64,000 nt of DNA from an uncultured Calditrichaceae bacterium. Its GTDB lineage: Bacteria; Calditrichota; Calditrichia; RBG-13-44-9. Location of the stretch: the NCBI GenBank assembly GCA_964495805.1, contig CAZBWV010000038.1, positions 14,676 through 78,675 on the forward strand, in the 5' to 3' direction. This document shows positions 5,564 to 42,513 of the stretch, piece after piece. Below the pieces are notes generated by a model, which saw only the letters and a list, made by a program, of their open reading frames with translations, did no database searches and was not told the origin of the DNA. Each line of letters opens with the position of its first letter. Position 1 is the first letter of the stretch. The position numbers and the translations under genes are program-made.

Positions 5564-6496
5564 TTATTTTTCGGTTACCTTCAGCGTGTTCAACAGATGG
5601 TACACAATAAGCAGCTGAGTTAATGCCAGCGGATAGCTGATTTTTGTTACTTCACCATCCTGATATTCTCCGATGGTGGTGTTTCGCAACTCTTCAAATC
5701 CCGGTAAATGCCGCCAGATGGTCTCTTCCATTTCCTGAGCCTTTTCCGGCGGCGTGTCGCCGGTAATATGCAAAAAGTCCACCGGACGCCCCTCGTCGCG
5801 CCCAAGCGTGACTGAGATGCATTTGTTCCGCGCATTGGGTGTATCGTCGATGAAGTCGGAAAAATCGGGATGCGGAATGGTGGGACGCAGCACCAGATTC
5901 ACATTCAGATGCCCACCGGTTTCTTCCTTTTTCCCCTCCGGCCGATAGAAATTTACCACAATATCTGCATAGGAGCGCTGGGGACGGATGTAGGTTTTGG
6001 AATCGTGCTCCCTGGCTTTGATGGCTTTAAGCACTTCTTCTTCGGTGTAACCACGTTTGGTGGTATCCCGCTTTATTTTCCATTTAATGCGCAATTCTTC
6101 TTCCGGGTCCAGATACACTTTGACATCAAACACATCGCGCATCCGACGGGTGTAAAAAGGGAGCAATCCCTCAATAATCACAAAATCGCGTGGTTTCACG
6201 TACTCCGGCGGATCGAAATCGCCGGTGGAGTGGTTGTACACCGGTTTCAGGATCGGTTTGCCCTCCCGAAGCAGGCGGATGTGCTGCTCCATGATGTCGA
6301 TGTAGTTACAGTCCGGATGCAGGGCGGTAATACCCAATTCTTTACGCTGTTTCCGATTGTACTTGTGGTAATCATCCGCACAGATGTTGGTCACCCGGTC
6401 GGGTCCCAGAATTTTCTCAATCCCCTTGGAAATTGTCGTCTTACCAGCGGCACTATCCCCCACAATTCCCAGCATGATAGGTCCTTTTGGTCGCAT
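5564..6496 (-). CDS. prk: Phosphoribulokinase (cyanobacterial/Chloroflexi-like type)
   Basis: P-loop GIVGDSAAGKTT, ICADDYH, KPVYNHSTG, EGL, KIKRDTTKRGY. Start moved from the track's 6613 to ATG 6496, which follows an AAGGAG RBS. Lies in the RuBisCO cluster. Confidence 0.92.
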   Translation of the reverse strand: MRPKGPIMLGIVGDSAAGKTTISKGIEKILGPDRVTNICADDYHKYNRKQRKELGITALHPDCNYIDIMEQHIRLLREGKPILKPVYNHSTGDFDPPEYVKPRDFVIIEGLLPFYTRRMRDVFDVKVYLDPEEELRIKWKIKRDTTKRGYTEEEVLKAIKAREHDSKTYIRPQRSYADIVVNFYRPEGKKEETGGHLNVNLVLRPTIPHPDFSDFIDDTPNARNKCISVTLGRDEGRPVDFLHITGDTPPEKAQEMEETIWRHLPGFEELRNTTIGEYQDGEVTKISYPLALTQLLIVYHLLNTLKVTEK

Positions 6497-6621
6497 GACG
6501 TTTTCTCCTTCCTTTTTTATATTCCTGTGAAAAAAACACTCCTTTTCTGTCTTTACCCGAATATGGGCAAAGACTCTCTTTCCTTGTCCGGAAACTGACC
6601 GGCGAAGGCCCATGTTTCAGG

Positions 6622-7350
6622 TTATTTCTGCACTACTCTGCGAAACAGGTTCAAAGATTGAGCGTGTATGGTTTCCAGCAAGTTCAGATTGAATCCGGAA
6701 GCGCCCGGTGCCACTAAAATGGCATGGGCAAATGAGCTCCCGAAGGTGTAATCGTTATAAAACACCACCGTAGGAATTCCCGCTGCCACAGCCGCGCGAA
6801 GTCCTTCTTCGGAATCTTCCACTGCCAGGGTTTCTTCGGCAGCGTATCCGGTTTGCTCCAGACACATCGGATACAGTTTTCCTTCCGGGCCGGTCTTGGG
6901 ACCACTTTCTTTTCCCAGTATTACCCGGAAATGGGTGGCAAATTCGCTCAGCTGGTTCTGGAGCAGAGCCCGGATTTGCGTCTCGTAGGAGGTGGAGACA
7001 ATCGCCAGTTCCATGCCACGCTGGACCGCTTCGGCAATCAGTTCCCGGATACCCTCACGCAGGCGAAGCGTCGGTAAATATTTCTCGATGTAAATGCGCT
7101 GCTTTAACGGAGCAAACTTACTCACAATCTCTTCAATTTCCCCGGCGGGAAGACCCTGATCGGTCAGGGTCTTCCGCAACCGATTCACATTGCCCGGAAT
7201 AGGGAGCAGCTCCAGAAACTCCTCCCACGACCAGCGAATCGACAGTCCCAGCTGTTCCATGGCGTCGTTGCTGGCCGGGAGGTGACCGTACCGTTCACTA
7301 TCCACCAATGTTCCATCGACATCGAAAATCAGTAACTTCAATTCAGGCAA
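6622..7350 (-). CDS. cbbY: HAD-IA hydrolase, CbbY-like (xylulose-1,5-bisphosphate phosphatase)
   Basis: FDVDGTLVDSE motif I, LAIVST, AVEDSEEG; located between cbbM and prk; TTG start after a GGAG RBS. Confidence 0.8.
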   Translation of the reverse strand: MPELKLLIFDVDGTLVDSERYGHLPASNDAMEQLGLSIRWSWEEFLELLPIPGNVNRLRKTLTDQGLPAGEIEEIVSKFAPLKQRIYIEKYLPTLRLREGIRELIAEAVQRGMELAIVSTSYETQIRALLQNQLSEFATHFRVILGKESGPKTGPEGKLYPMCLEQTGYAAEETLAVEDSEEGLRAAVAAGIPTVVFYNDYTFGSSFAHAILVAPGASGFNLNLLETIHAQSLNLFRRVVQK

Positions 7351-7403: not shown

Positions 7404-8810
7404 TTATTCCAGAAAATCTTTCAGTTTTTCCCGCCATCCGGGATACAGGCGATCGGCGTCGTGCGGGAAGGAAACAAAAGCCCGGGCAAACGCGCGGTGT
7501 TCTTTGGCAAACTCAAACACATCCGCCCCTTCGCGCCACATCTGTTCGGCCTGGCGCATGGATTTGGCTCCTTCTGCCGGTCCGTCCACATGTCCGTAAC
7601 AGCCACCGCCAGCGGTCATAATCACGTTGGAGTGCCCCAGATTCTCGAAGAAACCGGGTGCGCGCAGGGCGTTCATTCCGCCGGAAATAATCGGCGTGGT
7701 GGGTTTCATACCCAGCCAATCCTGATGGTACATGGGTCCATCCGCCGCATCGGCTGTAATCATTTCGGCAATCATCTTGTCGTCCTTGTAACCTTCCATC
7801 TTCCCAAATCCCATGGTTCCCACATGGATTCCGGAGGCACCCTGCAACCGTGCCATTTTCGCCAGTACAAATGCCGAATAACCGCGGTTGGTGCGGGGAG
7901 AGGTCACCATTCCGTGACCGGCCCGGTGGTAATGCAGGAATTGATTGGGGAAGTGCCGTCGGGCAGTGGTAATCGCAGCGGGTCCACCGACAAATCCATC
8001 CACCAGAAAAGCCACGTGATGGGCAAATTCCCCGAACTGTTCCAGAATGTACTCTCCACGGGCAATCATTTCGAACGGATCATCTGCGGTAATGTTGGCA
8101 GAAAAGAGTTTGGCCTTGCCGGTCTTGTCCTGAGCGCGCTTCATGGCATCCACCACCAGGGGAATCACCTTCTTCATCGGAGCAAAAACCTGATTGCCCT
8201 GCGGTTCGTCATTCTTAATAAAATCGCCTTCCAGCCAGAACTCATAGGCTGCTTTGGCAAATGGCTCGGGTCGCAAACCCAGCTTGGGTTTAATGATGGT
8301 TCCCACAATAAAACCACCGTTCACCACCGGACGTCCCAGCACGCGCCACAAATCGGCAATTCCCTTGGAGGGTCCATCGAACAGCTGCAAATAGCGCGGC
8401 GGGAAATAAAAATCGTACATCTTGGCATATTCAATATCTGCCATTCCCTGGTTATTCCCAATGGCCAGAGTCAGAAACGACACAATCATTGCCCGTCCAT
8501 CGATGATGTTGCGATCGAACAGTTCCACCGGATAAGCGATTTTCATTTCTTCCTTTTCCGGGTCGATAAAATAAACCGTCGCATCGATTTTACGGGTGAA
8601 ATCGTCAGTCGTTTTCACCTCCACATTGGTGCCGGTGGAAGATTCCGCAGCAAAGTGCGCCGCCGCCCGTAAATAATCCCCGGGGGATTTCGGATCGGGA
8701 TAGTGTTTGGGATTGGGTTTCATCTTGTAGTAAGCCAGCACAAAATCCCCGCTGCGGATTAAATCCTCTTCTTTGAGATTCAGATTGGTGTACCGGAGAG
8801 ATTGATCCAT
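7404..8810 (-). CDS. cbbM: Ribulose-1,5-bisphosphate carboxylase/oxygenase, Form II
   Basis: MDQS start, [61 protein letters not shown]: the full catalytic set. AAAGGAG RBS; no small subunit nearby. Confidence 0.98.
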
Positions 8811-8907: not shown

Positions 8908-9897
8908 TTAATCGTATTGAATGGAACTGATGCGCATGAGTTTTTCGAAGGAATGATGCGATTCAATGTAGCGAATGGTACCGGTTTTTCCCCGCATGAC
9001 CATGGAGTGAGTCACGGCTCCGCGACCGGTGTACCGCACTCCTTTCAGGAAAGTGCCTCCGGAGATACCGGTGGCAGCAAAGAAGATGTCGTCGCTGGTA
9101 ATCAGCTCATCAACATTCAGTATGCGGTTGATGTCGTATCCCGCAGCCAGCACGTTCTCTTTTTCTTTTTCAGATTGAGGGTCCAACCGGGCTAATATTT
9201 CGCCACCCAGAATTTTAATCGCTGTGGCAGCCAGCACACCCTCCGGTGTTCCGCCGGTTCCCATCATCACATCCACATCGGAATCCGGAGAAACCGCCAT
9301 CAGCGCCCCGGCCACATCGCCATCGGTATGTAACTGAATGCGTGCACCCGCCTTGCGAATGTCCGCAATCAGTTGCTGATGCCGGGGTTTGTCCAGTACA
9401 AATACCACCAGATCGTCCACATCCTTACCTAATGCTTTGGCAATGTTTTTCAGATTATCTTCCACAGGTGCTTCCAGATCGATGACATTTCGGGCTTCCG
9501 GACCTACCACCAATTTTTTCATATAAAAAGCTGGTCCGGGATTAAACATGGTGCCCCGCGGGGCAATGGAAATGACCGAAATCGCATTGGGGCGTCCAAA
9601 AGCCAGCAAACGCGTCCCCTCCACCGGATCTACCGCCACATCCATTTTGGGACCCTTACCGGTACCGACCCGTTCTCCGTTGTAGAGCATGGGTGCCTGA
9701 TCTTTCTCTCCTTCTCCGATCACCACAATGCCATCGATGTCGATCACGTTAAAGCTCATCCGCATGGCATCCACAGCGGCGCCGTCTCCGGCTTCCTTAT
9801 CCCCCTTGCCCAGCCAGCGGGCAGCAGCCAGGGCGGCTGCTTCGGTTACCCGAACCAGGTCCAAAGCCAGATTTCGTTGAGGTGCTTCTTTCGCCAT
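8908..9897 (-). CDS. glpX: Class II fructose-1,6-bisphosphatase (probable FBP/SBPase)
   Basis: RVTEAAA, AVDAMR, VIGEGEKD, AVDPVEGT, DGDV, GGTPEGV. Confidence 0.95.
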   Translation of the reverse strand: MAKEAPQRNLALDLVRVTEAAALAAARWLGKGDKEAGDGAAVDAMRMSFNVIDIDGIVVIGEGEKDQAPMLYNGERVGTGKGPKMDVAVDPVEGTRLLAFGRPNAISVISIAPRGTMFNPGPAFYMKKLVVGPEARNVIDLEAPVEDNLKNIAKALGKDVDDLVVFVLDKPRHQQLIADIRKAGARIQLHTDGDVAGALMAVSPDSDVDVMMGTGGTPEGVLAATAIKILGGEILARLDPQSEKEKENVLAAGYDINRILNVDELITSDDIFFAATGISGGTFLKGVRYTGRGAVTHSMVMRGKTGTIRYIESHHSFEKLMRISSIQYD

Positions 9898-10026: not shown

Positions 10027-10707
10027 TTACACAGCTACTTCGCCAGAAATGGCACGATTGGCGGACTGGCGGATGTCATTCATTGCCTGGACAATATCCG
10101 GAGCACGGAAGATGGCACTTCCGGCTACCAGCACATTGGCTCCACTGCGCGCCACCTCCGCTGCCGTCTCGGGATTCACCCCACCGTCCACTTCCAGATA
10201 AATGTCTCGACCCACTTCCTGAATCATCCGGCGGGCGCGTGCAATTTTATTCAGCCCCTGCCGAATGAATTTCTGTCCCCCAAAACCGGGATTCACGGTC
10301 ATAATTAACAGCAGGTCCATGTCCTCCAATACGTCCTCGATGGTGCTCAGGGAAGTAGCGGGATTCAGGGAAACGCCGGCTTTAATCCCGTGCTGATGAA
10401 TGTTCTGGATGGTACGGTGCAAATGGGTACAGGCCTCCTGATGCACGGTCAGGATGTCGGCGCCCGCTTCCACATAATCGTCGATGTACAAATCGGGATT
10501 GGAAATCATCAGGTGCACGTCCAGCGGAATATCTACAATCCGTTTGATGGTTTTCACCATATTGGGACCAAAGGTCAAATTGGGAACAAAATGCCCGTCC
10601 ATTACATCGATGTGAATAAAATCGGCGCCGTTTTCCGCCACCCGGCGAACCTGCTCTTCCAGCTTCAGTAAATCTGCCGATAGAATTGAGGGTGCGATGA
10701 GAACCAT
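10027..10707 (-). CDS. rpe: Ribulose-phosphate 3-epimerase
   Basis: IAPSILSAD, HIDVMDGHFVPNLTFG, MTVNPGFGGQ, EVDGG, LVAGSAIF. Confidence 0.97.
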   Translation of the reverse strand: MVLIAPSILSADLLKLEEQVRRVAENGADFIHIDVMDGHFVPNLTFGPNMVKTIKRIVDIPLDVHLMISNPDLYIDDYVEAGADILTVHQEACTHLHRTIQNIHQHGIKAGVSLNPATSLSTIEDVLEDMDLLLIMTVNPGFGGQKFIRQGLNKIARARRMIQEVGRDIYLEVDGGVNPETAAEVARSGANVLVAGSAIFRAPDIVQAMNDIRQSANRAISGEVAV

Positions 10708-10809: not shown

Positions 10810-11733
10810 TTATGCTTTGTTGGAACTTCCCAGCACATTGCGAATCTTGTGTTGTACCATTGCTTTCACCGCATCGCGGGCGGGTCCCAGATACTTACGC
10901 GGATCGAAATTTTCCGGATGTTCCCACAGTTCCTTCCGCACCGTAGCGGTAATTGCCAGACGAATATCCGTATCGATATTAATTTTGCACACGCCGTATT
11001 TGGCCGCCTCGCGGAGCATCTCTTCCGGCACACCGCGGGCACCACCAATCTTACCACCGTACTTGTTCGCCATCTCCACAAATTCCTGCGGAACCGAAGA
11101 GGCGCCGTGCAACACCAGCGGATATCCCGGCAGCAGTTCGGTAATCTTTTTCAGTCGCTCAAAATCCAGCTTCGGTTCACCGGAAAACTTGTACGCACCA
11201 TGACTGGTACCAATGGCAATCGCCAGCGAATCACATCCGGTTCGCTGAACAAATTCCACGGCCTGATCGGGATCGGTAAATACACTCTTCTCCGCCACGA
11301 CGTGTTCCTCGATTCCGGCTAATTGTCCCAGCTCCGCTTCGACCCATACACCTCGTTCGTGGGCATAATCCACCACTTTTTTGGTAATGGCAATATTTTC
11401 CTCGTAGGGCAAATGTGAACCGTCAATCATCACCGAAGTAAATCCACCGTCAATCACTTCCTTACAGATTTCGAAATTGGCGCCGTGGTCCAGATGCAGT
11501 ACAACCGGTACGTTGCTCTCTTCCACCGCTGCTTCCACCATTTTAATAATGTAGTTATGGCCGGCATATTTACGGGCACCGGCGGAAATCTGCAGAATCA
11601 CCGGCGAACGCTCTTCCTCAGCTGCCCACATAATTCCCTGCAAAATCTCCATGTTGTTCACGTTAAAGGCGCCAATGGCATACTTCCCTTCGTACGCTTT
11701 GGGAAAAATCTCTTTGGGTGTAGTTAATGGCAT
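10810..11733 (-). CDS. fba: Class II fructose-bisphosphate aldolase
   Basis: GAFNVNN, LHLDHG, SVMIDGS, EAELG, AIGTSHG, LVLHGASS, KINIDTD; start set at ATG 11733 after an AGGAGG RBS. Confidence 0.96.
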   Translation of the reverse strand: MPLTTPKEIFPKAYEGKYAIGAFNVNNMEILQGIMWAAEEERSPVILQISAGARKYAGHNYIIKMVEAAVEESNVPVVLHLDHGANFEICKEVIDGGFTSVMIDGSHLPYEENIAITKKVVDYAHERGVWVEAELGQLAGIEEHVVAEKSVFTDPDQAVEFVQRTGCDSLAIAIGTSHGAYKFSGEPKLDFERLKKITELLPGYPLVLHGASSVPQEFVEMANKYGGKIGGARGVPEEMLREAAKYGVCKINIDTDIRLAITATVRKELWEHPENFDPRKYLGPARDAVKAMVQHKIRNVLGSSNKA

Positions 11734-11815
11734 GTTCAGCAACCTCCTTCTTTCTAATTTTTTGATATCATTATTGATTAAGAATTATTTCGTCAAATTT
11801 TCACCCATTCTGTCC

Positions 11816-13831
11816 TCAGGCTTTTTGTTCCTTATACTGCTGGTACTTTTCCCGAATCAACGGGACCAGATGCTGGGGGGTGAATCCGTACGCTTCTTCC
11901 AGCTTCTGATAGGGTGCGGAATTGCCGAACCGGTTCAGACCGTACACAAAACCGTGGCACCCGGTGTATTTTTCCCACCCAAAAGTCACCCCTGCTTCGA
12001 TGGCCACACGAAATTCCACCTCCCCGGGGAGTACTTTCTCCCGGTATTCCCGGGGTTGCTCGTCAAACAGTTCGGTGGAGGGCAGGCTTACCACACGTAC
12101 TTTGAACTCCTGTTCCAGTTCGCGGGCAATCTTCAGAGCCAGATGGACTTCCGAACCGGTAGCGATGAGAATCATATCCGGTGTTTCCTGCTCGTTACCG
12201 TAAATAATGTACCCACCGCGTCGCACTCCTTCAGCGGAAGCAAGACGGGAACGATCCAGAACGGGAAGTTTTTGCCGGGTCAGGATGAGTGCAGTGGGAC
12301 GCTTCGTCTCTTCCATCGCCATTTGCATGGCGACTGCGGTTTCCGTGGCGTCTGCGGGACGCATTACAATGAAGTTGGGAATTGCCCGCAAAGATGCCAA
12401 ATGTTCCACGGGCTGGTGTGTGGGACCATCCTCACCCACATAGAAGGAATCGTGTGTGAACACATGCAAAACCGGGACATGCTGCATGGCACTTAACCGC
12501 AAAGCAGGACGCTCGTAATCGGCAAACACCAGGAAGGTGGCACCAAACGGGCGCAATCCGCCGTGTAGTGCCATTCCGTTCAGTAACGCACCCATGGGGA
12601 ACTCCCGCACACCAAAAGCAAAGTTACGTCCGGCGGGATTGTCAGGGGAGAAGTCACCCACTTTTTCCATAAAGGCACGGGTGGCGTTGGACGGTTCCAG
12701 GTCGGCTGAGCCACCCACCAGATGCGGTAACTGATCGGCCAGCGCTGCCAGCACTTTACCGAACGCCGCACGGGTAGCGATGGAATCGCCAGCGTTGAAT
12801 TCGGGCAGGTCAAACTTTTCCGGTAATTTGCCCTCTCCCACAAATTCCCACAATTTTTGAAACTGTGTATCGCCTTTTAATTTTTCCTGTAAACGCTTAT
12901 TCCATTCCGCTTCTGCCTGGCGAAGTTGATCGAAGCGGGAACGGAAGTAATCCACCACATCATCCGGTAAATAAAACGTTTTGTCGGGAGGTAATCCTAA
13001 TTTCTCTTTGGTTGCGGCAATTTCTTCCGGTGGAAGGGGGGCACCATGGGTTTCGTGGTCACCTTCGCGGGTAGCCGCACCCTTGGCCATTACCGTATCC
13101 CCGATAATCAGACTGGGTTTATCGGTAACCTGTTGGGCGGCCAGAATGGCGGCACGAATTTGTTCGTGATTGTGCCCGTCAATTTCCTGCACATGCCACT
13201 GGAATCCACGAAACACTTCGGCAATGTCGGTACTGTCCGCCCGTGTGGTGGGACCGGATATCTGAATTCGATTTCGATCGTAAAACATAATCATTTTCCC
13301 GATTTTCAGATGTCCCAGGATTGCCGAAGCGCCCAATGCCACCGGTTCCTGCAAATCGCCATCCCCGGCCAGCACATACGTGTAATGATTCATGATGTCT
13401 TCGCCCAGCATGGTGCGCAGCAGCACCTCGGCAATGGCCATACCGCCACCCATACCCACACCCTGCCCCAGCGGACCGGAAGTGGCTTCCACCCCGGGGG
13501 TCAAATCCGCTTCCGGATGACCGGGGGTTAAGCTGCCAAACTGACGAAATTCTTTTAAATCGTCTAACTTTAAATAACCGATCAGGGTGAGCAGGGAATA
13601 AAGTAGCATGGACTCGTGACCGGCAGAAAGCACAAAACGATCGCGATTAAACCAATCCGGATTCTCCGGGCTAAAACGAAGAAATTCCTTGAATACCACA
13701 TACGCCATATCAGCAGAGGACATGGCTCCACCAGGATGCCCTGAATTCGCTTTGCGGGTGGCATCCAGAATAAGTCCCTTGATAACCGCAACAACTTTCT
13801 GATCCATGGAAGCATTGGATTGTGTACTCAT
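11816..13831 (-). CDS. tkt: Transketolase
   Basis: SGHPG, DRFVLSAGH, TPGHPE, GPLGQG, GDGDLQE, THDSFYVGEDGPTHQP; probable start MSTQSN at 13831 (track starts at 13939). Confidence 0.96.
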   Translation of the reverse strand: MSTQSNASMDQKVVAVIKGLILDATRKANSGHPGGAMSSADMAYVVFKEFLRFSPENPDWFNRDRFVLSAGHESMLLYSLLTLIGYLKLDDLKEFRQFGSLTPGHPEADLTPGVEATSGPLGQGVGMGGGMAIAEVLLRTMLGEDIMNHYTYVLAGDGDLQEPVALGASAILGHLKIGKMIMFYDRNRIQISGPTTRADSTDIAEVFRGFQWHVQEIDGHNHEQIRAAILAAQQVTDKPSLIIGDTVMAKGAATREGDHETHGAPLPPEEIAATKEKLGLPPDKTFYLPDDVVDYFRSRFDQLRQAEAEWNKRLQEKLKGDTQFQKLWEFVGEGKLPEKFDLPEFNAGDSIATRAAFGKVLAALADQLPHLVGGSADLEPSNATRAFMEKVGDFSPDNPAGRNFAFGVREFPMGALLNGMALHGGLRPFGATFLVFADYERPALRLSAMQHVPVLHVFTHDSFYVGEDGPTHQPVEHLASLRAIPNFIVMRPADATETAVAMQMAMEETKRPTALILTRQKLPVLDRSRLASAEGVRRGGYIIYGNEQETPDMILIATGSEVHLALKIARELEQEFKVRVVSLPSTELFDEQPREYREKVLPGEVEFRVAIEAGVTFGWEKYTGCHGFVYGLNRFGNSAPYQKLEEAYGFTPQHLVPLIREKYQQYKEQKA

Positions 13832-13876
13832 GTTCGAACCTTTTGTTTTGGGTTTAACAAATGATGCTTTATTTGA

Positions 13877-13893
13877 TACAACCTTTATGCCAG
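13877..13893 (-). promoter_or_regulatory. Candidate sigma54 -24/-12 promoter for the cbb operon
   Basis: Minus strand CTGGCATAAAGGTTGTA versus consensus YTGGCACGrNNNTTGCW; GG-N10-G spacing is exact; -12 dinucleotide is GT rather than GC; about 45 nt upstream of the tkt ATG. Confidence 0.6.
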
Positions 13894-13982
13894 ATAGACA
13901 TGGGAACGATAAAAACACCGTTAAGCCGTATAGAAACAAATGGATGACGGTAATTTGCAGCGATCGGAAGAATCACACAGCT

Positions 13983-14010
13983 TGTGCCACACATGGCACA
14001 CCTGTGCCAT
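13983..14010. promoter_or_regulatory. Triple alternating half-site array (candidate activator binding site)
   Basis: GTGCCA 13984-13989, TGGCAC 13994-13999, GTGCCA 14004-14009, forming two overlapping palindromes at a 10-bp period. Confidence 0.65.
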
Positions 14011-14772
14011 GTATTTTTCTCCCCCTATAAAATCTGTCAAACCCTTCAAGGAGGAATTGTGTGAAGCGGCGATACTCGAAATGAATTAAATTTTTGCCCG
14101 AATATATGGTAGTTGTGTATAGTGGTCACGCTCAAAACAAGATTTTAATTTAATAATTGTTACATTGACAAAAAATAGATTGCATTTGGCCGACTTTCAT
14201 AAAATTAGATTTGACCCAGGAAACTTAGAAAAAACAAAAAGGTCATCATTAGAAATCAAAATATTAGATTGAATTCGTGTACCGGTCAAGTGGATTTTAG
14301 AGAAAACGAAATTCATCAAAAAGTTAAAATATGTACAAATGTGCGAACTCCATTTGCCCACGGTAAGGCGCCTTTGAGATTCAGCAATCCGTTAAACTTC
14401 TGAATGTCTTTCCGACCGAAGGAAGGTCACGTCCAGCGTTTTGTTCTCCACCGTGGCGTTGTCCCACATAGCTTCCGATGATGATGTGCCGGACACACGG
14501 GTCAACGGAATCATCCGCCATGCGATCTCAGGTGTCCTGATTGTAGCGAAAATTTTACATTTCCTTGCTTCGTGGATAGCTTATTGTGGCAAATCCAGTG
14601 TTTGTTTGTACAAATCAAAATACCATTGTTTCCGGTCAATTACATTTCACCACCTAACAATCCTGAGGATATATGCCATCATCGGGTATGGCTTTCCATT
14701 TTTTCCAGTTCTGCCCGGGTGTGTTTTTTGCAATCAGGTTTTTCTGCAAAAGGATTCAGTGGGTTAAAGCGG

Positions 14773-16104
14773 TTACAAGCCGTATTTTTTCATCAACCGA
14801 TAGAAGGTTCGGCGGGGAATCCCGGAAATCCGGGACGCTTCGCTGATGTTCCCACCCGCCCGGTGAATGTACTCGATCAGCGCCTGTTTTTCGTATTTTT
14901 CCATTAACCGGGAACGCTGACGCCGAAAGTCTCCGTCCGCTCGTACGTCCGGTTCCAGAGGGGCAAAAGTAATGGAAAGGTGTTCCGGTAAAATGGTGTC
15001 GCCCGTGCACAAAATGACCGCCCGTTCAATTACGTTTTCCAGTTCTCGCACGTTGCCGGGCCAGTGGTAATTTTTCAGAATCTCCAGCGCCTGATCGGAA
15101 ATCTTTTCCACCCGTTTGTTGAGCTTTTCCTCCGCGCGGGTCAAAAAGTGATAGGCCAGATAGGGAATATCCACCTTCCGTTCGCGTAGCGGGGGTAAAA
15201 AAATGGTAAACGTGTTAAACCGGTAAAACAGGTCTTTGCGAAACTGCCCCTGTTCAATGGCTTCTTCCAGATTTCGGTTGGTGGCAGCGATGATGCGTAC
15301 CTTCACATATTTCACTTCCGAAGAACCGACCGGCCGAATCTCTCCGGTTTGCAAGAACCGCAGGAGCTTCGCCTGTAAACTTAACTCCATGTCTCCGATT
15401 TCGTCCAAAAAGATGGTGCCTCCGTGGGCTTCTTCCAACAACCCTTTGCGGTCCTGTTCGGCACCGGTAAAAGCGCCCTTTTTGTACCCAAACAGTTCGC
15501 TTTCCATCAGCGAAGCGGTTAAAGCGGTGCAGTTCAGGGAAATGAATGGTTTGTCCCGCAAATGGCTGGCCTGATGGATAGCCCGGGCAACCATCTCCTT
15601 TCCGGTACCGGTCTCACCCCGCAGCAGAACTGTGGTGGGAGTCGGTGCGACACGCTTTACCAGTTCCATCACACTCTGCATCTGAGGCGACTTGGCTACC
15701 ATCCAGCGTGCATCGGGTAAATGCTGCTCCAGTTCCCGCTGAACGGTTAAATACCGCTCCCGGTACTCCTCCTTCTGCTTGCATTTTTCCACCAGCGCCC
15801 ACATAAAATGCGCGCTCTTCCCGTCGATGATTTCACACTGTTCCGATTTACACCGGTGTAACTGACGGGTTACTTCCCGGTCGCCGGTTACATTGACTGC
15901 AATATCCAGCCGGGGGTCGGCACAATAGGGTGCCCAGTGCCGTGCTACCGGAATATCGTGCTCCTGCGCAAAGCGAATGCCCGGTGCCTTCAGATTCTTA
16001 TCCACCACCGCCAGAATTTCCACTTCGGGCAGTTCTTGCAACAATTCCAGCAAATGCAAGCCGCCTTTCCCGGCTCCGACAACCAGTATGGTAATTGAGG
16101 ACAT
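14773..16104 (-). CDS. Sigma54-dependent transcriptional activator (bEBP) with N-terminal Rossmann-like domain and Fis-type HTH
   Basis: N-terminal ILVVGAGKGG...LAVVD; AAA+ motifs GETGTGKE, ELFGYKKGAFTGA, FLDEIG, AATNR, WPGNVREL; HTH GGNISEASRISGIPRRTFYRLMKKY. Confidence 0.95.
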   Translation of the reverse strand: MSSITILVVGAGKGGLHLLELLQELPEVEILAVVDKNLKAPGIRFAQEHDIPVARHWAPYCADPRLDIAVNVTGDREVTRQLHRCKSEQCEIIDGKSAHFMWALVEKCKQKEEYRERYLTVQRELEQHLPDARWMVAKSPQMQSVMELVKRVAPTPTTVLLRGETGTGKEMVARAIHQASHLRDKPFISLNCTALTASLMESELFGYKKGAFTGAEQDRKGLLEEAHGGTIFLDEIGDMELSLQAKLLRFLQTGEIRPVGSSEVKYVKVRIIAATNRNLEEAIEQGQFRKDLFYRFNTFTIFLPPLRERKVDIPYLAYHFLTRAEEKLNKRVEKISDQALEILKNYHWPGNVRELENVIERAVILCTGDTILPEHLSITFAPLEPDVRADGDFRRQRSRLMEKYEKQALIEYIHRAGGNISEASRISGIPRRTFYRLMKKYGL

Positions 16105-36569: not shown

Positions 36570-38765
36570 TTAAAATTTTACACCAAGATGGAAATAAGTT
36601 AGAAAATTATGCACTTCACTACCGGCAACTGTAATCTCCAACGGTCCCAGAATAGTATCCATCCCATAGGTAAATCCATATCCCACAATAAACCCCTTAT
36701 CCAGAACGTTATCCACCCAACTATCGAATACATTTCCCGCATTGACCGCTCCGATCAGGAAGCTTTTTGGAGAAAGCGCATATTGAATATAAAATTTACC
36801 AGCATGCACATTGGAACCAAATAACTCTTTCAGATTCAATCCGTAAAATGAAAATAAAGAACGATTACGCACCGTTTGAAGCACCGGTACATCAATACCT
36901 CCCAGGAAGAACGCACCGTTGATGGGGACCTCTCCTCTGCGAACAGAACCAGACACCAGGTGAGCGCCCAAAACCACACCGGGATACACCTCTTTTGCCC
37001 CACTGGCGTTGAAAAAGACTCGATCGAAAGAAATCTGTTCTCCCATTTTTCCCATGTAATTAATGCCATGATCATAACGAGCATAAATGGAATAACCATT
37101 TCGGGGGAAGTAATAGCGGTCGTATTTATCCATCCAGATGACGGTCATTAAAGTAAGAATTTTTTCCTCAAATTTAGGAAGTCCCACCTGTCCGATGTTG
37201 GGAGAAGCTCGAACGTATTCGGCCCGGAGACCCATATCCAGATCGAATATTCGAGCAAACAGGGAACCAAATCGCACCTCTCCGGCATAGTTCCGAAAGC
37301 CGTATTGCGCAAGCACTTCTTTCTGGTAGTATAGATCCAGATTATCCTCAGCGTAATTCAGCCTTAAATTCAATCCCACTCCGGGCAAAATTCCCATCAA
37401 AGTGTAATATTGAGCATCGATTTCAAGTCGATTTCCCAGTAAAAAATCCAGATTAATGTAAGAGCTTTCTCGCATGAGATTCCGAATTAGAAAATTGATG
37501 ATAAAAGAGGTGTTTCGCACATTATCGTACCGAAATCCCAGGCGGAATTTATTAAGTTTTTTTTCAATAATATTCAGCACCAGGATGTTTTTTCCATTTT
37601 CCCGGTGGATACGATAATCCACCCGGTTAAAAAATTGAAGGCTGTAAATATTCTCCACTGCTTGCTGGATGTCATCCACCGAATATCGGCCTGGTAGGCG
37701 CAAATTTAATTCTGAGATGATGGTTTTCCAGGAGACCTGTCGGAGTCCTTTAATCTGCACTGCATCCAGGTCCAGGGAATCGGGAATTGACACCACAGGA
37801 TGTTTGGGCAAAGGTTGATATTGCCGAAGTGAATCTGCCAGGGCTTTCAATTGCGGCATCACTTTTCGCGCAGCCCGTTCCCCCCGATCCACAATATCCT
37901 GAACATTGTCAAATGACAAAGGCGACAAACCGGAGATATCTGGCCGTATCACAATATCGGCCAGCTTCAATTGCGCCTCGTTCGTAGCAACCGAACTGTA
38001 CATGTTGCTCTGGTTTAACACATTGAGCAGGGACTGCAATTCTTCTTTTTTAAACAAAACGGCAGAGACATCCACCGCAATAATGATATCGGGATGATAT
38101 TTCTCAATCATATCAATTACCGGGATGTTGCGTACCCGATCCCCGTCAATCAGGTAACGGCCGTCAATTTCCATGGGGACAAAGACGGAGGGAATGGACA
38201 TGCTAGCCCGGATGGCATAAGGTAAAAAGCCATGATCCAAGCGCACCCCGTTTCCATTCTGCATATCGGTTGCAAGTGCCAGGAAAGGAACTGGCAATTT
38301 GGAGAAGTCCGAAACATCGTGCACAGGTATGGTAAAACGCGAAAGCACCTCCAGTACAAACTGACCGGCAATGATCCCGCTGGGTAAATAGATCTTGGCT
38401 TTGCGCATGGGAAGTTTCAACGCATATCGGCCATCCCAGTTTTTCTGATCCATACGCAATTTACGCCGACCGACAACATCGTATAAAATATCGTTCCAGT
38501 CCGTGCCCACAGCCACCTGTTCCAGCTCATCAATGGAAAGTCCGGCCGCGTACAAACCACCTACCACACTGCCCATGCTGGTTCCTGCGATGTAATCAAT
38601 GGGAATATTCAATTCTTCCAGTACTTTAATGACCCCAATATGAGCAAAGCCTTTGGCTCCCCCACCGCTCAAAACCAGTCCCACCCTGGGTCGATCCCCC
38701 CTGGCGAAGACGATTAGCGGAACCAAGAATATCAGCACCATGTATTTGTAGAAAGAGAACTTCAT
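36570..38765 (-). CDS. Patatin-POTRA-beta-barrel protein (PlpD-like, type Vd)
   Basis: LSGGGAKGFAHIG, GTSMG, IDGD; central POTRA-like segment; barrel ending in GVKF. Start set at MKFSFY. Confidence 0.88.
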   Translation of the reverse strand: MKFSFYKYMVLIFLVPLIVFARGDRPRVGLVLSGGGAKGFAHIGVIKVLEELNIPIDYIAGTSMGSVVGGLYAAGLSIDELEQVAVGTDWNDILYDVVGRRKLRMDQKNWDGRYALKLPMRKAKIYLPSGIIAGQFVLEVLSRFTIPVHDVSDFSKLPVPFLALATDMQNGNGVRLDHGFLPYAIRASMSIPSVFVPMEIDGRYLIDGDRVRNIPVIDMIEKYHPDIIIAVDVSAVLFKKEELQSLLNVLNQSNMYSSVATNEAQLKLADIVIRPDISGLSPLSFDNVQDIVDRGERAARKVMPQLKALADSLRQYQPLPKHPVVSIPDSLDLDAVQIKGLRQVSWKTIISELNLRLPGRYSVDDIQQAVENIYSLQFFNRVDYRIHRENGKNILVLNIIEKKLNKFRLGFRYDNVRNTSFIINFLIRNLMRESSYINLDFLLGNRLEIDAQYYTLMGILPGVGLNLRLNYAEDNLDLYYQKEVLAQYGFRNYAGEVRFGSLFARIFDLDMGLRAEYVRASPNIGQVGLPKFEEKILTLMTVIWMDKYDRYYFPRNGYSIYARYDHGINYMGKMGEQISFDRVFFNASGAKEVYPGVVLGAHLVSGSVRRGEVPINGAFFLGGIDVPVLQTVRNRSLFSFYGLNLKELFGSNVHAGKFYIQYALSPKSFLIGAVNAGNVFDSWVDNVLDKGFIVGYGFTYGMDTILGPLEITVAGSEVHNFLTYFHLGVKF

Positions 38766-38843
38766 CCCATTACCCTCATTTTTTCCCAATATTCCAAGGA
38801 ATTAAACATAATTCGAATTGGCATCCTCCGTTTTTCCGCGCAT

Positions 38844-40100: not shown

Positions 40101-40870
40101 GGGTTTTTTACCCCCGATTGATTTTTTAATCCATGCTGGTAAAGTGTGGAAATGGTGACGATTTTCAGACCTTTTTGGGTCAGATAGGGAAGGATTTGTT
40201 CCAGCGTACGGATAGTTCGCCTGCCGCGATCGCCACCATCATGCAGAACTATGATATCTCCCGGCCGGGTCGTCCAATCGATGTAATGGGAGGCCAGAAA
40301 GGTAAACGGAATCTGCGCATCGGCAGGATAAACTGAGCCCAGTACCAGACGATAACCCCGCGGGTCGTTCGCCAGATAATTGGCCATCTCTTCTGTGTAA
40401 AACGCAGAGCCGGGGCGCAACCAGCGCACCGGTGCAAACTGCCGCAACACACTGTCCGCCCGGTTAAATTCCTGCACAAACTTCTGGTAAGTCAGTTTAG
40501 CCGTTGGTTCATCGCGGGTCATGTGGTTGCCTATTTCGTGCCCTTCGGCCAGAATTCGCTGAATAATGGCTTCATTGCCCGGAACCCGTCCGGTAATCAC
40601 AAAAAATGTGGCATGGGCGTGATACTTACGAAGGGTGTTTAAAATCAGTGGAGTGGTGACCGAATCCGGTACATCATCAAAAGTAAGCGCCACCAATGGT
40701 TCGTTAGTAGGAATGTAAAAAATTGCCTCGGGATAATTGGTCGCCACCTGTTCCACCACCAGATGGTGAATAGGGGCGCAACTCGCCAGCATCAGCAAAC
40801 CTATGAACAGAATTCCGCACAGGCGATATCCCCTCTCTCCGGATCGATTCATTTTTCTCCAACCCCGCAT
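40097..40870 (-). CDS. Polysaccharide deacetylase (NodB/CE4), probable lipoprotein
   Basis: ALTFDD, HEIGNHM, LRPG, IIVLHD; LASC lipobox. Confidence 0.88.
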   Translation of the reverse strand: MRGWRKMNRSGERGYRLCGILFIGLLMLASCAPIHHLVVEQVATNYPEAIFYIPTNEPLVALTFDDVPDSVTTPLILNTLRKYHAHATFFVITGRVPGNEAIIQRILAEGHEIGNHMTRDEPTAKLTYQKFVQEFNRADSVLRQFAPVRWLRPGSAFYTEEMANYLANDPRGYRLVLGSVYPADAQIPFTFLASHYIDWTTRPGDIIVLHDGGDRGRRTIRTLEQILPYLTQKGLKIVTISTLYQHGLKNQSGVKNP

Positions 40871-42513
40871 TAATACTCCAGTTTTCGTTCTTTTATGTAT
40901 TGAAGCAACTGGCTCATACTGAGTTGACGACTGGCCGGGCCACTGCGAATGAAAAACATCTCCTGATCCTTATTTTTCAGAAATACCGGTCTGGGAGAGG
41001 GAAAACACTGTACCACAAAAACGTCCTTCCCCTGCACTTCACGGATGGCAAACTGGATGTATTCTGAAAATTCCAGCCCGATATGTTGATTGAATATGCT
41101 TCCGAAGTGCCTTAAGTATTTATCGTGATTGGGGAATTTGTCCAGTTCAATTCCCAGCGGAGTTCCATCATCATCTACACCTACAAACAAAAACCCGCCA
41201 CCGGAGTTCATAAACGCGGTAATGGTTTTCAGACTGGCCAGTTCAATCTCCTTGCCTGGCTTGTCCGCTTTCAGATTCCAGCGCAGGGTGGATTTGAATT
41301 CCACCCGTTCGCTTTCCCCGTTGCGAATTAAATCAAGTAGTTCTTCCTCACTCATCCGGGAAAGCTCTCGTGTAATGCTGCGGGCTCGCTCCCGTTTAAC
41401 CATCCGAACCGTTAATAAAAGGGTCCCCAGCCAGAGAACCACCAGCACCCCAATAATGGGAAAATACGGACGAGAAGAATATCCCTGTAACAGGGCAGAT
41501 TGAGGCACCACCCAGGCCAATCCCATAGGATGTTCTTTTTCAAAACGACGTAAATAAGCCCACCATATCAGCCCGGCTTGCTCGAACCGAAACGGATGCT
41601 CAGGTTGTCCCGAACTTTTCCACGCTTCCAGTACCTGTCTGGCCACAGAATCGGCAGGTATATGGCCACTCCCGAGAGTTTGCGCCTGTTTTTCTGCTAC
41701 CGGCTTATTGGACACCTGAGCCAGATTTAAAATGATTTGTTGCCCGGAAAAAATGAACACCCGGCTGGAGGCATCCAATTTCAGTGAATCTACCAGCGAA
41801 ACAAGATGCCGGTACAACACGCTAAGTGCGGCAACTCGTTGGGTATGGGCTCGCTTCCAGGCCAGCGAAATGGTCATGCCCGTTTGCCCATCGGGGAAAA
41901 GTTGATATGGTTCGGTAATGGAAAATTCCTGTTCCCCTATTTCCAGCGCATTCCGGAACCAGTTCCGGTGATGGGGACGGAAATGAACATCCGCTTTACG
42001 TTTACCAAGCAGGTTTCCCTGCGCATTCAGTTCCCACCATTCCTGCTGGCCGGTGGAATCATTTCCCACGGTGACCAGTGCCCGCCAGCCTGCCTGCCCA
42101 CGAAAAAGGGCAAAACTCCACCCCCGCGTATCAGACAGAATCAAAGAGTAAATCTGAGCATTATTGCTTATCAGGGGGAAGAGCTGATCTTTTAGTAAAT
42201 CCGGTCGGGAGGTGTTCAGTACGCCATTTTTATCCCACTGCCGGATTGTAACAAGATGTTTCAAAATAGGACTGAAAAAATTAGAAATCCGTTCGGTGCT
42301 TTGCTCGGAAAGCTGGCGAATCACCTGCCGGGAGATTTCACCGGTCTGCCGCTGGCGACCCACCAGCAACAGAATAACAACTCCCACAATCGCTACCAGA
42401 AAGAAAACGTTTAATAAAAATAGTGAACGAATGGTTCTGTTTTGGAAAAGGTATTTTCCGGACGGGTTCGGCCGACTGGAATTATTCATTGGTTTAGTTT
42501 CGTTGCTTGACAT
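40870..42513 (-). CDS. Membrane-anchored Cache-domain sensor fused to a C-terminal Schlafen/AlbA_2 domain
   Basis: TM1, periplasmic Cache-like region (RPHHRNWF...TEPYQLF...GMTIS), TM2, then GESERVEFKSTL, KTITAFMNSGGGFLFVGVDDDG, FFIRSGPASR. Confidence 0.8.
   Translation of the reverse strand: MSSNETKPMNNSSRPNPSGKYLFQNRTIRSLFLLNVFFLVAIVGVVILLLVGRQRQTGEISRQVIRQLSEQSTERISNFFSPILKHLVTIRQWDKNGVLNTSRPDLLKDQLFPLISNNAQIYSLILSDTRGWSFALFRGQAGWRALVTVGNDSTGQQEWWELNAQGNLLGKRKADVHFRPHHRNWFRNALEIGEQEFSITEPYQLFPDGQTGMTISLAWKRAHTQRVAALSVLYRHLVSLVDSLKLDASSRVFIFSGQQIILNLAQVSNKPVAEKQAQTLGSGHIPADSVARQVLEAWKSSGQPEHPFRFEQAGLIWWAYLRRFEKEHPMGLAWVVPQSALLQGYSSRPYFPIIGVLVVLWLGTLLLTVRMVKRERARSITRELSRMSEEELLDLIRNGESERVEFKSTLRWNLKADKPGKEIELASLKTITAFMNSGGGFLFVGVDDDGTPLGIELDKFPNHDKYLRHFGSIFNQHIGLEFSEYIQFAIREVQGKDVFVVQCFPSPRPVFLKNKDQEMFFIRSGPASRQLSMSQLLQYIKERKLEY

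Follow-up and report, generated by a model that had tools for sequence, protein, structure and literature searches.

Enhancers of sigma-54-dependent promoters are known from enteric bacteria, where NtrC (NR-I) acts at glnAp2 from dyad sites ~100-140 bp upstream of the promoter, and from the upstream activating sequence (UAS) of NifA, TGT-N10-ACA, which was originally defined by promoter comparison. Calvin-cycle operons are classically controlled by CbbR at sigma-70 promoters. CbbR is a LysR-family protein, usually encoded by a divergent gene, that recognizes T-N11-A boxes close to the promoter. The phylum Calditrichota is mostly regarded as heterotrophic.

Within a 64-kb stretch of DNA (hereafter the window) we identified an array of three TGGCAC half-sites that probably, at a likelihood we put at roughly 80% from the comparative evidence, represents the UAS of a sigma-54-dependent promoter driving a seven-gene Calvin-cycle operon in a bacterium of the Calditrichia. 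The type of site is ordinary, namely a textbook sigma-54 enhancer, and the novelty is the circuit, which we did not find described. The operon is encoded on the minus strand from 13831 to 5564 in the order tkt-fba-rpe-glpX-cbbM-pgp-prk, and the array lies upstream of it in a 941-bp gap that has minus-strand genes on both sides. The features of the locus are as follows:

5564-6613, minus strand: phosphoribulokinase (Pfam)
6622-7350, minus strand: HAD phosphatase (Pfam)
7404-8810, minus strand: form II RuBisCO (Pfam and best solved-structure matches)
8908-9897, minus strand: GlpX FBPase (Pfam)
10027-10707, minus strand: ribulose-phosphate 3-epimerase (Pfam)
10810-11742, minus strand: class II FBP aldolase (Pfam)
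11816-13831, minus strand: transketolase, first gene of the operon (Pfam Transketolase_N, Transket_pyr, Transketolase_C_1)
13892-13878, minus strand: sigma-54-type promoter TGGCAT-AAAGG-TTGT, the only TGGCAY-N5-TTGY match in 64 kb
13984-13999, minus strand: promoter-proximal core palindrome, GTGCCA-TGTG-TGGCAC on the operon strand, unique in the window and kept in orthologues
14004-14009, minus strand: distal third half-site, TGGCAC on the operon strand, one helical turn above the palindrome
14773-16104, minus strand: putative cognate activator (bEBP) of 443 aa (Pfam Sigma54_activat, AAA_lid_14, HTH_8)
15775-16104, minus strand: Rossmann-like input domain, activator residues 1-110

The best solved-structure matches of the RuBisCO include a chain titled 'Form II RubisCO' as well as the R. 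rubrum and R. palustris enzymes, and the protein is encoded without a small-subunit partner. The same operon gene order was found in five related loci (L003, L086, L087, L088 and L133). With respect to the host, the SHMT encoded in the window shares 81-88% identity with proteins labelled Calditrichia/Calditrichota, and the window sequence was found only in hydrothermal-vent DNA metagenomes. A vent study placed Calditrichota MAGs among the putative heterotrophs lacking carbon-fixation pathways (PMC9769843).

Compared with the NtrC system, the locus has in common a Fis-HTH AAA+ activator and several adjacent sites on one helical face, an arrangement that would aid oligomerisation and looping. 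The NtrC site is of the TGCACC-N5-GGTGCA type and occurs as two full dyads, whereas the window has three half-sites; NtrC is phosphorylated on a receiver domain, whereas the window activator has no receiver and carries a Rossmann-like N-terminus; and the NtrC target is nitrogen assimilation, whereas here it would be carbon fixation. With the NifA UAS the locus shares a conserved palindromic enhancer ~100 bp or more above a -24/-12 promoter, and the extended window palindrome TGTGCCA-N4-TGGCACA likewise starts with TGT and ends with ACA. The spacing of these triplets is however TGT-N12-ACA, the conserved core is GCCA/TGGC, and NifA has a GAF domain. Like Rex, the window system would combine a Rossmann dinucleotide sensor with a DNA-binding domain and a GTG...CAC-type palindrome (TTGTGAA-N4-TTCACAA in the case of Rex). 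Rex, in contrast, represses sigma-70 promoters and is a small winged-helix protein without an AAA+ domain, its operator measures 20 bp against 18 bp overall in the window with unlike arm length and spacing, and there is no sequence relationship to the window activator beyond the Rossmann fold. On direct reading, Rex, CRP/FNR and NifA boxes were all rejected as descriptions of the site owing to their different spacings. The cbb operons of Proteobacteria resemble the window in that RuBisCO, prk, tkt, fba, FBPase and phosphatase genes are joined in one operon, with a dedicated adjacent regulator answering to metabolic or redox state. They differ in that the window operon has no flanking LysR gene, a -24/-12 promoter and a site 100 bp away. 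A CbbR/LysR-regulated cbb promoter was rejected for this locus, the operon being bounded by the gene of the sigma-54 activator and, at its other end, by that of a HEAT-repeat protein; inspection of the flanking genes with Pfam found no conserved regulator gene beside the operon other than that of the activator. A literature search did not find sigma-54 or bEBP control of a cbb (Calvin-cycle) operon described.

The predicted promoter (TGGCATAAAGGTTGT, minus strand 13892..13878) has its -24 element TGGCAT at 13892..13887, with the GG at 13891/13890 and the -12 GT at 13879/13878. This spacing matches the GG-N10-GC geometry exactly, and TTG is invariant. The predicted transcription start lies at ~13866-13867, 36 nt ahead of the transketolase ATG. 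The weakest point of the sigma-54 assignment is the dinucleotide at -12, which in the window and eight of ten other lineages reads GT where GC is canonical, with L088 and L093 carrying TTGC. A second sigma-54-like promoter with TTGT at -12 was identified on L001 (11096-11111, plus strand, TGGTATTGTGTTTGTA; TGGTAT-TGTGT-TTGT), so TTGT may be the usual -12 element of the lineage. This second promoter lies 60 bp ahead of an Alginate_exp / cytochrome c3 / molybdopterin-oxidoreductase cluster and adjoins a divergently encoded pair of a histidine kinase and a receiver-type bEBP, which is a different activator. No rpoN gene was seen within the 64-kb window.

The array itself reads GTGCCA-CACA-TGGCAC-ACCT-GTGCCA on the plus strand at 13984-14009. 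The half-sites start at 13984, 13994 and 14004, i.e. in exact 10-bp steps with alternating orientation. A preliminary description of this DNA had proposed three TGGCAC half-sites of 10-bp periodicity, located 117-142 bp upstream of the start site; direct reading bears out the periodicity, and the distance is reproduced from the start predicted here. The bounds given there, 13983 and 14010, correspond to flanking T's, by which the outer arms are extended to TGTGCCA and GTGCCAT. The window has a single exact copy of the 26-bp pattern, and with up to three mismatches allowed shuffled sequences gave a mean of 0.03 matches, with any match in only 3 of 100 shuffles. The 16-bp palindrome GTGCCA-N4-TGGCAC likewise has one copy in the window at zero mismatches. 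The promoter-proximal palindrome is, judged by its uniqueness and conservation, the core element of the putative enhancer. The hexamer TGGCAC by itself is over-represented in the window, with 45 copies against 30.8 ± 5.4 in shuffles, none of which reached 45; most copies lie within genes. Since the hexamer is common, it is the arrangement of the copies, rather than the copies themselves, that stands out. Neither an Rfam scan of the whole window at gathering thresholds nor a permissive Rfam scan of 13800-14800 gave a match.

Orthologous loci were gathered via homologues of the activator and of transketolase, which yielded a comparison set of 11 related operon lineages from metagenomes. A profile search of metagenome contigs with the activator N-terminal domain contributed only ~6 further orthologous loci, of which several duplicated L003. 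The promoter (TGGCAY, TGGTAT or CGGCAC, followed by N5 and TTGY) together with three to five GTGYCA/TGRCAC half-sites was kept in all 11 lineages. The palindrome GTGCCA-N4-YGGCAC is present in eight lineages (GCGCCA in one locus) and is joined in every lineage by one to three extra half-sites. Measured from the palindrome centre, the first G of the -24 GG is 98.5-100.5 bp away in seven of the eight loci (100.5 bp in the window), and in L003 the distance is 88.5 bp, shorter by about one helical turn. On L087 another palindrome was found 43 bp, or about four turns, upstream of the first. When the eight upstream regions were aligned, the only invariant blocks were G.GCCA and GGCAC, the arms of the palindrome, and GGCA and TTGT of the promoter, the latter two at fixed spacing with a variable 5-nt spacer. 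The spacers within the array, its flanks and the DNA between enhancer site and promoter were not conserved.

The three-half-site layout is found with different spacers in four lineages, namely the window, L131/L132 (TGGCAC-AATT-GTGCCA-GTTT-CGGCAC), L134/L135 (TGGCAC-ATCT-GTGCCA-CAAA-CGGCAC) and L003 (TGACAC-AACC-GTGCCA-AGAG-CGGCAC). The distal half-site at the 10-bp offset is TGGCAC in L131/L132 and L134/L135 and TGACAC in L003. As the array recurs with different spacers, its architecture is a conserved one, shared beyond a single genome. The closest relative, L131, shares 90% transketolase identity with the window; its half-sites lie at -177, -167 and -157 from the ATG (-178, -168 and -158 in the window), and its promoter is identical and placed within 1 bp relative to the ATG. 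The blastn alignment of the two upstream regions ends at the -24 element. The first 18 positions of L131, at the contig end (GATGTGTATAAGAGACAG), are presumably the Nextera transposase mosaic-end adapter left in the Logan assembly. In other lineages, extra half-sites or a second palindrome occur 21-43 bp upstream of the proximal palindrome. In the more distant L088, L093 and L130 the half-site spacing varies (N3, N8, N13), which is unusual for a rigid dimeric HTH and counts against an enhancer. Half-site density was 12.5 per kb in seven upstream regions, with 300 of the window's 941 bp included in the count, versus 0.79 per kb elsewhere in the same loci. In the 1.03 Mb of fetched DNA we counted 13 clusters of at least three half-sites within 70 bp (shuffles gave ~1.5), ten of which were located in operon upstream regions. 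A perfect 20-bp palindrome on L130 (218-237, TTGTGTCAATATTGACACAA; GTGTCA-N4-TGACAC) lies ~175 bp upstream of the activator gene and suggests possible autoregulation of the activator in that lineage.

The activator encoded at 14773-16104 consists of a Rossmann-like N-terminal domain, a coiled-coil linker, a sigma-54 AAA+ domain with the GAFTGA motif and a Fis-type HTH, whose segment GNISxASRxSGIPRRTFYR is nearly invariant among orthologues. An orthologue lies directly upstream on the same strand in eight cases (the window, L003, L086, L087, L088, L093, L130 and L134). In L131/L132, L133 and L136 the operon and site are preceded by other DNA and the activator is not adjacent, i.e. the site stays with the operon where the activator gene lies elsewhere; in L001, L005 and L129 the activator is present with other genes downstream. 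Judging from gene neighbourhood, this activator is most likely the protein to which the site belongs. Several features described for sigma-54 UASs were found together at this locus: a -24 element (TGGCAT, with GGCA invariant in eight loci), a location within the ~80-150 bp upstream of the promoter that is expected of such sites, with constrained distance, dyad symmetry with multiple sites suited to an oligomerising activator, and a linked activator with a sigma-54 AAA+ domain (GAFTGA) and an HTH. Of the features of a sigma-54 UAS that can be tested computationally, the site shows all except for the -12 dinucleotide, which is GT. The preliminary description had read the half-sites as a UAS for the neighbouring activator. 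The comparison supports the first part, since nothing in the upstream regions is invariant apart from the half-sites, the -24/-12 elements and the ~100-bp distance between them, and gene neighbourhood agrees with the second, the activator gene being the conserved upstream neighbour in eight lineages.

If the array is an enhancer, activator dimers would bind GTGCCA-N4-TGGCAC via the Fis-type HTH, and a further activator subunit would contact the third half-site, one helical turn off on the same face of the DNA. The bound activator could then assemble into an AAA+ ring, which would loop across ~100 bp of non-conserved DNA to RNA polymerase-sigma-54 at TGGCAT-N5-TTGT, where the activator would drive promoter opening with ATP. 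The Rossmann-like N-terminal domain might gate activation by a dinucleotide, e.g. NAD(P)H, by which CO2 fixation would be tied to redox.

The half-sites could instead bind another factor, a repressor or activator encoded elsewhere, while the neighbouring activator uses other DNA or no specific binding at all. We consider this unlikely. The link between protein and motif is purely one of gene neighbourhood, and the two do occur apart, the operon and motif being without an adjacent activator gene in three lineages and the activator being without a downstream operon in three loci. A sigma-54 promoter, however, needs an enhancer-binding activator, and the half-sites stand at the standard enhancer distance, which is held within ~2 bp or one helical turn. 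Moreover, the activator gene is the adjacent upstream gene in eight lineages, no other regulator gene is conserved beside the operon, and the near-invariance of the activator HTH parallels the invariance of the half-site. It was also considered whether the TGGCAC copies might act as decoys or competitors for sigma-54, holding or titrating holoenzyme near the promoter, since the half-site equals the consensus -24 hexamer and the operon-strand sequence TGGCAC-AGGT-GTGC resembles a -24/-12 pair. This alternative, which the preliminary description had also offered, found no support and appears very improbable: read as a promoter the sequence has the spacing GG-N9-GC, one base short of the required GG-N10-GC, and related loci tolerate TGACAC and GTGTCA half-sites, in which the GG is destroyed. 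The pattern of conservation is that of a dyad, as expected where a dimeric protein binds DNA, and not that of a directional bipartite promoter.

Two further readings concern elements that overlap the repeats. A promoter scan detected a 10/12 match to a sigma-70 promoter on the minus strand (TTGACA at 14040, a 16-bp spacer and AAAAAT ending at 14013) with its predicted start inside the repeats, which could then be an operator for repression. The hexamers are, however, absent at matching positions in L131, L134, L003, L086 and L087, and promoter-like matches are frequent in the AT-rich spacer (8 versus 2.6 expected). The sigma-70 promoter with operator was rejected for this lack of conservation, and we give the idea scarcely any credence. 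The least probable reading in our opinion is that the repeats serve as secondary structure, either as a plus-strand terminator or attenuator (hairpin 13991-14012, then ATTTTT) or as leader-RNA hairpins. A terminator scan does flag ACATGGCAC-ACCT-GTGCCATGT followed by ATTTTTCTCC, the fold is better than that of shuffled sequences (z = -4.1 on the plus and -3.7 on the minus strand), and segments 1-2 and 2-3 could pair alternatively. Across nine sites, on the other hand, there were no compensatory changes; four of the seven pairs never vary, and the variation at two others (A:C in 4/9 sites, C:A in 1/9) only breaks pairing. The T-run is missing in L131, L134, L003 and L087, and an intrinsic (rho-independent) terminator was rejected as neither the T-run in orthologues nor covariation was found. 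There is furthermore no plus-strand gene upstream of or ending at the site, the element is 760 bp from the activator stop codon in the window and 67-157 bp elsewhere, and the predicted operon transcript begins ~117 bp downstream, which means that the site would not be transcribed.

The activator could not be assigned to a described family by NCBIfam equivalogs: NifA, NtrC, NorR, PrdR, RtcR and others were searched, and none reached its cut-off. The best match was nifA with a score of 359.7 (cut-off 528.85), confined to the central domain, ntrC scored 315.6 (cut-off 558.6), and all matches covered central and C-terminal regions only. Kinship with two Desulfovibrio bEBPs whose N-terminal regions are of unknown kind was considered and rejected, as no Fis-type HTH is annotated in DVU0151 and the motif in DVUA0100 is GVATGV (PMC4641369). 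The full-length AlphaFold model of the activator was poor (pTM 0.35), and the model of the N-terminal domain alone was used. For these 143 residues the pLDDT was 80.6, with values of 84-96 per 10-residue block over the first ~95 residues, and the model shows a beta-alpha-beta Rossmann domain with a long helix after it. Best Foldseek matches were the NAD(P)-binding domains of DmpF, GenD2 and Gfo/Idh/MocA-type enzymes, as well as those of homoserine and diaminopimelate dehydrogenases, at 13-25% identity. Activator orthologues retain both GxGxxG and the Asp35 that closes strand 2, and the Pfam domains GFO_IDH_MocA and DapB_N were detected in 11 and 10 of 12 members, respectively, mostly below threshold. 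Fold similarity and these sub-threshold matches point to NAD(P)(H) as a candidate ligand. RtcR has a CARF domain, which is a different Rossmann-fold domain, and a literature search did not find a bEBP with an NAD-type Rossmann sensor domain described.

A profile of the N-terminal domain matched 728 representative protein clusters at E <= 1e-10. In ten sampled proteins the domain heads histidine-kinase (HisKA/HATPase_c), PAS, GAF, receiver or GGDEF/HD-GYP modules, and none of the ten had a Pfam family over the Rossmann-like stretch (whole-protein E <= 1e-5). From this domain architecture it is a putative modular sensor input. Searching genome contigs with the full activator retrieved generic bEBPs via their AAA+ motifs and one true family member, on a Methylomirabilota contig (L006, 4004-6944), which is 53% identical and has GFO_IDH_MocA above cut-off. 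It is encoded upstream of a gene of the PEP-mutase/isocitrate-lyase family, and there are no TGGCAC sites there. This different downstream gene and the lack of sites indicate that the link to the Calvin cycle is specific to one clade. In L003, L005, L087 and L129 the activator follows a cluster encoding Rieske, cytochrome b, a 533-residue multihaem cytochrome, Pyr_redox_2 and a 38-residue ORF, at which no TGGCAC palindromes were seen.

It is possible, though less likely than not, that a Calditrichia lineage runs its complete form II RuBisCO Calvin-cycle operon from a sigma-54 promoter and not via CbbR, and that the activator directly senses NAD(P)H/NAD(P)+ through an unnamed Rossmann-like domain which also stands at the front of histidine kinases and c-di-GMP enzymes by the hundred. 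If this holds true, the three-half-site enhancer would form the DNA side of a new switch from redox state to carbon fixation, and it would give a first way into a widespread, uncharacterised signalling module that senses dinucleotides. In the proposed circuit, vent-dwelling Calditrichia would rely on an all-or-none sigma-54 promoter together with an AAA+ activator whose sensor domain is Rossmann-like. The pattern GTGCCA-N4-YGGCAC ~100 bp upstream of TGGCAY-N5-TTGY can be used for a regulon search. The motif would also offer a ready assay for the ligand of a sensor domain present in at least 728 protein clusters, and its presence may flag regulated autotrophy, or CO2 fixation for redox balance, in a phylum that is usually scored as heterotrophic.

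Between the activator stop codon and the enhancer the window has a ~740-bp AT-rich stretch (14040-14772) with 29-38% GC across 14100-14399. It contains no convincing ORF, has no Rfam match and shows no similarity to any fetched locus, its six-frame pieces giving a single marginal tblastn match (E = 0.09). Orthologues have 67-157 bp at this position, and L001, the closest relative by its activator, has quite different genes downstream of the activator. Owing to the short spacer in orthologues and the different genes on L001, the stretch may be a rearrangement junction. Elsewhere on the minus strand, the window encodes a patatin-like phospholipase fused to POTRA/Omp85 (36570-38789) and a protein of 547 residues whose C-terminal domain is Schlafen AlbA_2 (40870-42513).
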